Shown: positions 18,395 to 20,058, counted from the stretch's first letter. The stretch: 64,000 nt of DNA from an uncultured Planctomycetota bacterium (GCA_903892515.1 CAITIS010000057.1:49627-113626), one strand, 5' to 3'. Made by a program: numbers and translations. Notes: generated by a model from the sequence alone, not told the origin.

Positions 18395-20058
18395 TTTTCG
18401 AAGAACTCGCGCGCATCCTCATGGAGTTGCTTTCGGGCTGGCGGGTCGGTGTAGATTTGATGGCCGGCATCGTACAGCCGCACCGTCAGATGCGCACGAA
18501 ACGTTTTGGGCAGGCCCAAGTGCTCAGCCGTGTATTGCTGCATGAAATAGCCCGTCACAAGATCGTATCGCCCAGCGGCCATGAGCACGCGCAGGTTCGG
18601 GTTGACCACCATCGCCTGCTGCAACGTGGGTGAAACGTTCAGGCTGCCGGACTGGCCGCTGTCCCAGTTCCACATGCGACTGATCTCGCCGGAGAGAAAC
18701 ACGTACGGCGCGTTCGTGCGATAGCCCAGTTCCTGCCGGATGTACTCCTGGATGGTGGCGCTGTACGGCCCGATCACCAGCGACAGCGACGGATCGTCCA
18801 GCACGCTGTTGGTGTCAGTATTGGGCCCAGCCACGCGGTCGTCGTACAGGCCTAGCGTCTTGTTGTCCTTCTTGAGCAGCTCGTGGGCGAAGTCCGAGTT
18901 GCTCACGCGCAGCTCATCGGCGGCGATCACCTCTTCCGTCAGGCCGGTGAGGCGGGCGAGCCGCGCGATCACCTGCTTGCGCTGCGTCTCGTCGAGTTTG
19001 TCGCCGGAGGCCAGGGCCCGCAGGTACTCGTTCAAGGCATATCGCTGCGATTCATCCAGGGCTTTGGCCAGGTCGGCCTGCAAGTCGGCGGGCAGCTTGT
19101 GGTGGTAGTGCGCCGCGGCCGTATATGTCGGCAGGTACAGGGCGAAAGGCAAATCGTTGCCCGGCGCAAACTGGATGAGTTGGAAGTTCAGCGGCGAACT
19201 CACCAGCACCAGGCCGTCCAGGTACATGCCAAACCGCCGCTGAAGGTAGCCCGACAGTGAGGCCGCACGAGTTGCCCCGTAGCTTTCGCCAGCCAGATAC
19301 TTGGGCGAGAGCCACCGCTCCCAGCGCGTGACGTACAGGCGGATGAATTCGCCCAGCGATTGCGTGTCGGCGTGCAGCCCGAAGAAATCCTTGGCCTTGC
19401 TGGCGTTGGCCGGTCGGCTGTAGCCGGTGCCGACCGGATCGACGAAGACCATGTCGGTGGCGTCCAGCCAGCAGTCGTCATTGTCGATGAGGGTCAGGGT
19501 CTTGGGCAGCGTCAGGCCGGCCTGGCCGAGTTCGGCCCGCTTGGGGCCCATCGCGCCCATGTGCAGATACATAGAGGATGCGCCCGGGCCGCCGTTGAAG
19601 GCGAAGGTGAGTGGCCGCTTGCCCGCCTCGACGCCGTCGAGCGTGTAGGCGATGAAGAAGATCTCGGCATCGGGGTTGCCCTCGGCGCCGGGAACCTGCA
19701 ACAGCCCAGCCGTGGCGGTGTAGTGAAGAATCTTGTCGCCCAGGCGAATCTCGTGGTGCGTGACGGCGAGCCCCTGCGTCTGTTCCGATCCTTCGCCGGG
19801 GCGCGTGGCGGCCGCACGAGCGCCCTGGGTTGCGGTCGCGGCCGTGGCACTGCCGCCCTCGGCTGTTGAATTCGTAGGACAGCCGCCCTCGGCTGTCGAA
19901 TTCGTAGGACAGCCGCCCTCGGCTGTCCGGGAGGGGGGCTGGCTGACCGGCCGTGAGAGTGGTTCGGGTCTTACTGGCTGCGTCGCGACTTGGCCCGAGC
20001 ACGCACTGGGAATCACAAGCATGGCCACAAGCAATGGCAGCAGCTTGAGTTGGGTCAT
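18388..20058 (-). CDS. Serine carboxypeptidase, S10 family, exported
   Basis: FAFNGGPGASS, FVDPVGTGYS, nucleophile motif AGESYG, and YDAGHQIY (catalytic His); N-terminal signal peptide. Confidence 0.92.
   Translation of the reverse strand: MTQLKLLPLLVAMLVIPSACSGQVATQPVRPEPLSRPVSQPPSRTAEGGCPTNSTAEGGCPTNSTAEGGSATAATATQGARAAATRPGEGSEQTQGLAVTHHEIRLGDKILHYTATAGLLQVPGAEGNPDAEIFFIAYTLDGVEAGKRPLTFAFNGGPGASSMYLHMGAMGPKRAELGQAGLTLPKTLTLIDNDDCWLDATDMVFVDPVGTGYSRPANASKAKDFFGLHADTQSLGEFIRLYVTRWERWLSPKYLAGESYGATRAASLSGYLQRRFGMYLDGLVLVSSPLNFQLIQFAPGNDLPFALYLPTYTAAAHYHHKLPADLQADLAKALDESQRYALNEYLRALASGDKLDETQRKQVIARLARLTGLTEEVIAADELRVSNSDFAHELLKKDNKTLGLYDDRVAGPNTDTNSVLDDPSLSLVIGPYSATIQEYIRQELGYRTNAPYVFLSGEISRMWNWDSGQSGSLNVSPTLQQAMVVNPNLRVLMAAGRYDLVTGYFMQQYTAEHLGLPKTFRAHLTVRLYDAGHQIYTDPPARKQLHEDAREFFEKR
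19844..19933. repeat. Three tandem 30-bp GTAG/GTGG REP-like units inside the S10 peptidase ORF
   Basis: GTAGG-ACAGCCG-CCCT-CGGCTGT twice plus a GTGGC variant; encodes (N/R)(S)TAEGGCPT repeats. Confidence 0.9.

Follow-up and report, generated by a model that had tools for sequence, protein, structure and literature searches.

Repetitive extragenic palindromic (REP) elements of the GTAG type have a tetranucleotide head, a GC-rich stem of 7-9 bp and a short loop, and occur in many copies as singletons, inverted pairs or head-to-tail groups; inverted copies flank the genes of REP-associated tyrosine transposases (RAYTs), and some copies lie in frame within genes, with clusters encoding tens of residues (Nunvar 2010; Ton-Hoang 2012; PMC3733652). 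Di Nocera et al. (2013) sorted REPs into the GTAG and CGTC super-families, spanning 8 phyla, and described intragenic REPs in several species, more than half of the intragenic inserts being dimers or groups that encode 20-30 amino acids, with clusters encoding 43-82 amino acids in Thauera and Rickettsia conorii; they also warned that many REPs annotated at the N-termini of open reading frames (ORFs) are really extragenic (PMC3733652). The element described here shares the features of the GTAG type, its association with RAYT genes being seen in other genomes, and was found as a tandem array of three units in a window of 64,000 nucleotides (the whole stretch of DNA that was analysed, CAITIS010000057.1:49627-113626 of assembly GCA_903892515.1, from an uncultured Planctomycetota bacterium; positions are counted from its first letter), within the gene of a family S10 serine carboxypeptidase. 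As intragenic REPs are already known, this array adds one case to them, one that passes the start-codon test, unlike many of the N-terminal cases.

The classic in-frame palindromic insertions in protein genes are the Rickettsia palindromic elements (RPEs; Ogata et al. 2000, as cited in PMC3733652). RPEs are palindromic selfish DNA lying in frame at permissive sites of functional genes, as the present array would be, and the two are likened as functional analogues only. RPEs are approximately 100-150 bp long and occur as single insertions, and we know of no transposase identified for them, whereas the present units measure 24-30 bp, are tandemly amplified, and have an identified transposase family. 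Like REPINs (Bertels and Rainey 2011; PMC5581495, PMC8049555), the same REP forms inverted doublets of fixed spacing in some genomes (47 nt from core to core in Umea_bin-02666), and its RAYT is usually a stand-alone gene, but the array in the window is direct, that is, head-to-tail, and coding. The bacterial interspersed mosaic elements of Escherichia coli are also REP clusters with regular spacing, but they alternate in orientation and are extragenic.

The array occupies positions 19844-19933 of the plus strand, where reading the sequence from 19500 to 20300 revealed three consecutive head-to-tail units of 30 bp, each composed of a GTGG or GTAG head, a hairpin, and a 6-nt spacer. The units, with their translations from the minus strand, on which the peptidase gene runs, are as follows.

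19844-19873, plus strand: REP unit 1, GTGGCACTGCCGCCCTCGGCTGTTGAATTC; GTGG head, stem ACTGCCG/CGGCTGT with one mismatch, spacer TGAATTC; codons 63-72, NSTAEGGSAT
19874-19903, plus strand: REP unit 2, GTAGGACAGCCGCCCTCGGCTGTCGAATTC; GTAG head, 8-bp stem, CCCT loop, spacer GAATTC; codons 53-62, NSTAEGGCPT
19904-19933, plus strand: REP unit 3, GTAGGACAGCCGCCCTCGGCTGTCCGGGAG; GTAG head, 9-bp stem, CCCT loop; codons 43-52, SRTAEGGCPT

Tandem Repeats Finder reported the same repeat at 19852-19927 (period 30, 2.5 copies, 97% matches, score 145), which bears out a first-pass annotation of this DNA that had placed a triple 30-bp array with GTAG/GTGG heads at 19844-19933. The 7-bp stem given there applies to the 18-nt core ACAGCCGCCCTCGGCTGT, a 7-bp stem with a CCCT loop, but only six of the seven pairs form in unit 1, and the full stems of units 2 and 3 reach 8 and 9 bp. 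At up to 3 mismatches the core had 5 matches in the window, against 0.16 expected from shuffles, and no shuffle reached 5; units 2 and 3 and a minus-strand copy at 59833 were exact, and unit 1 and a minus-strand copy at 52248 had one mismatch each. The stem and loop had been described as identical to those of the 59833 copy, and this is so for units 2 and 3 but not for unit 1. Folded as DNA, four of the window copies formed hairpins of -9.9 to -11.8 kcal/mol (z -3.6 to -4.9), unit 2 giving -9.9 kcal/mol (z -4.6) and unit 3 giving -11.8 kcal/mol (z -4.9), while unit 1 was weaker (-5.4 kcal/mol) and carried a T:T mismatch in its stem, a base change that also makes the third Cys codon a Ser codon (S70). 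Rfam returned no family in 19500-20300 at E <= 1. A candidate fourth, decayed unit at 19799-19833 (63% identity, ungapped) formed no hairpin and was at chance level for GC-rich DNA, and is not claimed.

The gene around the array and its parts are listed below.

18388-20058, minus strand: gene of a 556-aa S10-family serine carboxypeptidase, assigned by PF00450 match, homologues and alignment
20064-20070, minus strand: Shine-Dalgarno-like AAGGAGA, 5 nt upstream of the ATG at 20058
19999-20058, minus strand: putative signal peptide, codons 1-20, MTQLKLLPLLVAMLVIPSAC; all homologues have a hydrophobic N-terminal leader
19780-19998, minus strand: linker, codons 21-93, variable among homologues and modelled as disordered; the array forms its central 30 codons
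T45-R81 of the protein: tryptic peptide spanning the array, TAEGGCPTNSTAEGGCPTNSTAEGGSATAATATQGAR (TAEGGCPTNS...TATQGAR)

The Peptidase_S10 profile PF00450 matched with 59.4 bits (cut-off 21.9), covering only profile positions 12-147 of 420, and 6889 homologues were found at E <= 1e-20, the full-length ones being named carboxypeptidase C or peptidase S10 (E down to 1e-152) and the closest being only 53% identical. In an alignment of 17 sequences, namely the window protein and 16 homologues, S259 (in GESYG), D499 and H533 were invariant, and these we take to be the catalytic triad of the S10 family. On this assignment the triad is intact, and the gene is predicted to encode an exported carboxypeptidase. 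Bacterial S10 serine carboxypeptidases (cathepsin A-like; PF00450) resemble it in the GESYG Ser, the Asp and the His, in the signal peptide, and in length, and differ from it in that the window protein has 30 REP-encoded residues in the spacer before the domain.

The leader of the peptidase ends in PSAC, and Cys20 could be a lipobox cysteine, in which case the enzyme could be a lipoprotein. Its divergent neighbour (20210-22174, plus strand) is an apolipoprotein N-acyltransferase (LNT_N + CN_hydrolase), a pairing that could also be coincidence.

Read in the frame of the peptidase, the array corresponds to codons 43-72 (S-R-TAEGGCPTNS-TAEGGCPTNS-TAEGGSAT), and in-frame start codons (ATG, GTG or TTG) occur at codons 1, 9, 11, 13 and 15 and then only at 120. 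In all 16 aligned homologues a hydrophobic leader is followed by a short variable spacer and, from the position of T100 on, by a conserved domain; in the window protein this spacer is approximately 30-40 residues longer, and its extra residues fall at the variable spacer of its relatives. An AlphaFold model built on the 17-sequence alignment (mean predicted local distance difference test score, pLDDT, 73.5) gave residues 15-93 a pLDDT below 50 and no secondary structure, with the fold starting at residue 98. The base composition of codons 31-90 is atypical, with a GC content of 0.77-0.87 at second and 0.67-0.70 at third codon positions, compared with 0.8-0.9 at third positions across most other parts of the gene. 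Because there is no start codon between 15 and 120 and the domain begins at about residue 100, a product with a complete domain must initiate upstream of the array, and as far as can be judged from sequence the enzyme cannot be made without translation of the array. We put the probability that the REP array is translated as part of the S10 linker at roughly 0.85.

The first-pass annotation had already proposed that the array is coding and lies between signal peptide and catalytic domain, and the S10 match, the Shine-Dalgarno site and the late next start codon agree with the first part of this, and the homologue alignment and the AlphaFold model with the second. The linker placement stands, with the range corrected from codons 42-72 to 43-72, and the two added cysteines are C50 and C60, with S70 in place of a third. 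Two observations had been named there as telling against the proposal, and neither was made: translation does not appear to start downstream of the array, and the repeat is conserved at the DNA and not only at the amino-acid level, with a 30-nt stretch identical between units 2 and 3 and a core equal to that of the non-coding copy at 59833.

In order to place the element among known REPs, the 23-mer GTAGGACAGCCGCCCTCGGCTGT was searched by exact match against one genome per species, and among the matches listed it was present in at least 118 contigs, several of them 1-3.6 Mb long. These contigs are labelled Planctomycetota, Hydrogenedentota (Hydrogenedentes), Acidobacteriota, Desulfobacterota, Chloroflexota, Nitrospirota (Nitrospirales) and Sumerlaeota, that is, at least 7 phyla. 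Contamination of metagenome-assembled genomes (MAGs) was considered as a cause of this spread and rejected, since copies lie on 1.8-3.6 Mb contigs of different phyla. The consensus over 145 copies was aTGTAGGACAGCCGCCCTCGGCTGTCc, with flanks varying from copy to copy. The unpaired GTAG/GTRG tetranucleotide is seen in the window as GTGG in unit 1, GTAG in units 2 and 3, GTAG at 59851-59855 and GTGG at 52266-52270.

RAYTs are HUH/Y1 transposases that recognise REP hairpins, and in other genomes the element is associated with genes of this kind. Inverted REPs at 533 (plus strand) and 1106 (minus strand) of locus L009 lie on either side of a 194-aa ORF that has the HUH and Tyr motifs; this ORF scored 102.9 bits on NCBIfam NF047646 (REP-associated tyrosine transposase, REP_Tyr_transpos) and also matched Pfam Y1_Tnp; scores for the REP-flanked genes were 102.9, 89.6 and 81.5 bits, where 80 is the cut-off. 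Searching with an alignment of RAYTs gave 80 loci in at least 8 phyla; identities were 47-73%, the majority of loci have REP cores no more than 400 nt away, and both the HUH and the Tyr motif were invariant among the RAYTs compared. Because the 23-mer is multicopy and its inverted copies flank RAYT genes above the NF047646 cut-off in other genomes, the element is, to judge by these sequence comparisons, a genuine RAYT-type REP of the GTAG type. The REP identity proposed at the outset was thus upheld by the head, the GC-rich hairpin, the copy number and the RAYT genes flanked elsewhere. Both the array and the pair at 52248 lie inside ORFs and not in extragenic DNA; this is an exception within the REP family rather than a ground for exclusion, as intragenic members are already on record. 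The window holds three REP loci with 6 units, and other genomes have dozens of contigs per MAG with the element. It differs from described GTAG REPs in two ways: its 23-mer is identical across at least 7 phyla, many REP families being confined to one species or genus, and its head-to-tail arrays are frequent, whereas such arrays are reported to be rare in most genomes. An identical 23-nt REP in at least 7 phyla, alongside RAYTs of 47-73% identity, suggests tight co-constraint of RAYT and REP, horizontal spread, or both.

A scan for two cores 24-38 bp apart returned 92 stretches, mostly from Planctomycetota. The modal period was a multiple of three in 75 of 115 arrays (binomial p 3e-12 against one third) and, with the most repeat-rich MAG left out, in 44 of 78 (p 2e-5), p-values that overstate the evidence because arrays of one genome are not independent events. 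Periods peaked at 27, 30, 33 and 36 bp, the favoured multiple differing between genomes. Where 100 or more codons were open on each side (30 arrays), the period was a multiple of three in 25; three of five arrays tested with other periods were upstream of the true start. By Pfam, arrays were located between or within domains of SucC, NuoG, PutA, GcvP, a sigma-54 activator, an SBP_bac_5 protein, GH2, GH42 and a Type ISP enzyme. Examples of array-bearing stretches, from loci L121-L209, are the following.

L128, 3003-4412
L136, 3520-5373
L131, 2403-5603
L123, 574-3102
L169, 3219-7007
L172, 3-2423
L174, 256-3288

A TatD-like gene with a 6 x 33-bp REP array (L192, 4918-6456, minus strand, CAVTCJ010000015) has its N- and C-terminal parts in different frames on the two sides of the array, and may be frameshifted or disrupted, or may contain a sequencing error.

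At 4 of the 80 RAYT loci the RAYT frame itself was continuous, without a stop codon, with 200 or more codons of a host gene on either side; at the other 76 the frame closed 0-111 codons downstream, mostly within 23. The four in-frame REP-RAYT-REP loci are these.

L169/L210, WYBU01000120
L152/L256, JAKJEM010000028
L224, VGSW01000222
L221, JAJDDR010000507

Their hosts are GcvP, two Type ISP restriction-modification enzymes and one MmeI-type restriction-modification enzyme. A comparison of the L169 GcvP with PDB 4lgl gave aligned residues 30-762 and 767-980 and a clean 256-aa insert made up of a REP, the RAYT and a 5 x 30-bp REP array. The two Type ISP hosts are homologous and carry the RAYT at different positions, and at the RAYT site of one the other has a REP array only. 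No description of a whole RAYT inserted in frame in a host gene was found in the literature examined. The peptides QPPSAV, QPRAAV, TAEGGC and SRGRLC were likewise not found in the searchable literature, TAALGC appeared only in unrelated antibody and other papers, and the supplementary files of PMC3733652 contained no peptide encoded by the present REP.

From these observations we infer that a single REP entered the 5' part of the S10 carboxypeptidase gene and that local duplication of a 30-bp unit (the 24-nt REP with its 6-nt spacer GAATTC) followed; replication slippage or unequal exchange, aided by the hairpins, is the probable mechanism. Local duplication is preferred to three separate insertions because the spacer GAATTC is common to all units and 30 nt are identical in units 2 and 3. 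Unit 1 may have drifted later, or it may stem from the GTGGCA subtype, to which the copy at 52248 belongs. Five of the six frames of the REP are open (VGQPPSAV, RTAALGC, DSRGRLSY, TAEGGCP and QPRAAVL), as are all six with a GTGG head, the closed frame being only the one that reads the TAG within GTAG. Tolerance would follow from a unit length that is a multiple of three, the scarcity of stops, and the non-conserved, disordered spacer before the catalytic domain, and with such a unit, open frames and a permissive site the array would be invisible to frame selection. The exported enzyme would gain 30 flexible residues with two cysteines, and the mRNA would gain, over codons 43-72, two strong hairpins and one weakened hairpin. 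The array is most likely a tolerated passenger, a piece of intragenic selfish DNA that hardly affects catalysis.

It is possible that the array was instead kept for a useful role as nucleic acid, such as slowing ribosomes after the signal peptide, setting the half-life of the mRNA, or serving as a site for RAYT, gyrase or IHF. For the array segment of the mRNA a folding energy of -52.4 kcal/mol was obtained, which no shuffle out of 200 equalled (z -3.1); the segment lies 23-52 codons past the end of the signal peptide, and effects on mRNA stability and binding of host proteins are known for REPs (background in PMC3733652). Such a role is nevertheless unlikely, as unit 1 is already decaying with its stem mismatch and the same REP is found at many unrelated positions in unrelated cytoplasmic enzymes, which points to tolerance rather than to a role specific to secretion.

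That the array is non-coding, with the true start downstream and the hairpins acting as a regulatory element in the 5' untranslated leader of the peptidase gene, is suggested by the extragenic location of many REPs annotated at the N-termini of ORFs (Di Nocera et al., PMC3733652) and by arrays in other genomes that lie in long open frames but upstream of the true start, those of LexA (L148), RACo (L162) and L033. We regard this as highly improbable here, since the start-codon gap described above extends into the domain, a downstream start would drop the signal peptide present in all homologues, and there is a strong Shine-Dalgarno site for the ATG at 20058.

A period of exactly 10 codons, two Cys 10 residues apart in an exported protein, and the bias of arrays of the same REP elsewhere to 3n periods could also be explained if the selected feature were the protein, for instance a Cys-containing tandem peptide forming a disulfide-stapled or modified linker, and the likeness at the DNA level were secondary. 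The chance of this seems slight, because the identity of units 2 and 3 over 30 nt and the sharing of the core with the non-coding 59833 copy and with copies in seven phyla are features of the DNA, and the peptide was present in none of the 16 aligned S10 homologues. Furthermore, the reading frame of the element varies from gene to gene, with four in use (QPPSAV, QPRAAV, TAALGC and TAEGGC), so that no single peptide is conserved. An assembly artefact, either a repeat-induced chimera or a wrong copy number, would fit breaks at the array in some assemblies and REP-like contigs and reads approximately 10 times deeper than the array flanks in the source metagenomes, but it can hardly be the explanation when the whole region was assembled independently from two lake-water runs with zero differences, the protein with the array is on 5 contigs of up to 315 kb, and the 1/2 and 2/3 junctions differ (T/C), so that no exact repeat is longer than 30 nt, less than the 31-mer word size.

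Several observations nonetheless weigh against a translated and tolerated REP array in the linker. The assembly breaks at the array in two of four runs (X3 and X4), and no RAYT gene is present in the 64-kb window. Unit-number polymorphism was not seen in the data, which are assemblies and hide rare variants. No RNA run with the gene was found, and there is no near-orthologue without the array, the closest homologue being 53% identical, to prove or date the insertion. An effect of the array on mRNA, translation or secretion is also possible.

Further searches gave the following results. The array was also present, with zero differences, in ENA scaffolds; the soil run X5 gave fragments only, with no contig spanning it. 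Scans of metagenome contigs for strain variants with the junction-specific 30-mer and a flanking 23-mer gave no match. A contig search for closer S10 orthologues matched 75 stretches, none of which encodes a relative; they were presumably matched through the REP-encoded pattern AEGGCPTN, one of six used. A search of protein databases with the 45-aa linker peptide gave no candidate.

The preferred reading, a REP array translated as a tolerated part of the S10 linker, has a lesson for annotation, as here a "repetitive extragenic" element contributes to the sequence of a real protein, and repeat masking or start-codon trimming would mis-annotate the gene. It would also provide a transposase-linked counterpart of the Rickettsia RPEs outside the Proteobacteria, and suggests that selfish hairpins can supply ready-made, frame-safe linker segments, here with cysteines. 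The REP family appears to occupy coding sequence unusually often, and this is the source of its wider interest. A bolder proposal, which we consider doubtful although worth stating, is that this REP/RAYT lineage is specialised for life inside coding sequence and not merely tolerated there. It would fit the five open frames out of six, the growth of arrays by multiples of three, the location of arrays in loops and linkers of essential enzymes, and the four RAYTs in frame among 80. If it were true, the S10 array would be the footprint or the seed of an in-frame mobile element that makes new protein linkers, and alters the length of existing ones, in Planctomycetota and other phyla. The questions raised are whether frame selection shapes array growth, whether coding hairpins affect translation or export, and whether host enzymes can function with an entire RAYT domain in a surface loop.

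The two other REP loci of the window are as follows.

59833-59855, minus strand: single intergenic REP of the same family, GTAGCACAGCCGCCCTCGGCTGT, between an ORF at 59886-61811 (minus strand) and an AP_endonuc_2 gene at 58988-59791 (minus strand)
52248-52303, minus strand: second intragenic REP pair, period 33, GTGGCACAGCCGCCCCCGGCTGT and a degenerate GTGGCACAGCCGTAGCCGGGTGT; units 52248-52270 and 52281-52303

The copy at 59833 is intergenic, as the first-pass annotation had it, but those at 52248 and 52281 lie inside a gene. This pair is in frame in a HAD hydrolase gene (52102-52977, plus strand; PF00702, E 2.8e-20), where it is read as SQPGAAVPRILSHPATAVPRE (SQPGAAVPR / SHPATAVPRE), and it is followed downstream by a 9-bp repeat, AGGGTCCGC, present three times at 52329-52355 (VGSAGSAGSA). 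PDB 4ygq aligns on both sides of the insert, and between motif I and the cap region the window protein is longer by approximately 57 residues. With this pair inside the HAD gene and the array inside the S10 gene, two of the three REP loci of the window are intragenic. A 14-bp direct repeat, GACCTCAGGCCTCC (1.9 copies, 59857-59883), adjoins the intergenic REP at 59833-59855.

The contig derives from metagenomes of lake water, and the MreB encoded in the window is 80-85% identical to that of Planctomycetota MAGs, mostly Phycisphaerae. Besides the REP, this genome is rich in short interspersed repeats. Many short tandem arrays of heptamers lie in apparent intergenic gaps: GGGAATC/GATTCCC occurs in both orientations at four places (29135-29169, 41411-41455, 46990-47029 and 47067-47113), the pair at 46990 and 47067 being inverted, and further arrays are of CGGATAC, CTAATAT, CCCTATG and CGATTTT (31671-31722, 31739-31774, 48810-48870 and 28718-28751). 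Dispersed repeat families are found in both orientations, namely GGCATGGTCACGC, CCTATGGCACCC/GGCTCTACCTA and GCACGCCCTACG, with sites as listed.

30519-30613 and 41480-41637: dispersed repeat sites
45348-45387 and 53008-53290: dispersed repeat sites
26633, 28019, 28053, 52973 and 53316: dispersed repeat sites

Lastly, a 21-bp tandem repeat, AAACGGGGCCCAGAGCCAAGG (approximately 4 copies, score 122), is located at 16725-16821, between a Calx-beta ORF (14707-16560) and a ceramidase-like ORF (16894-18186).

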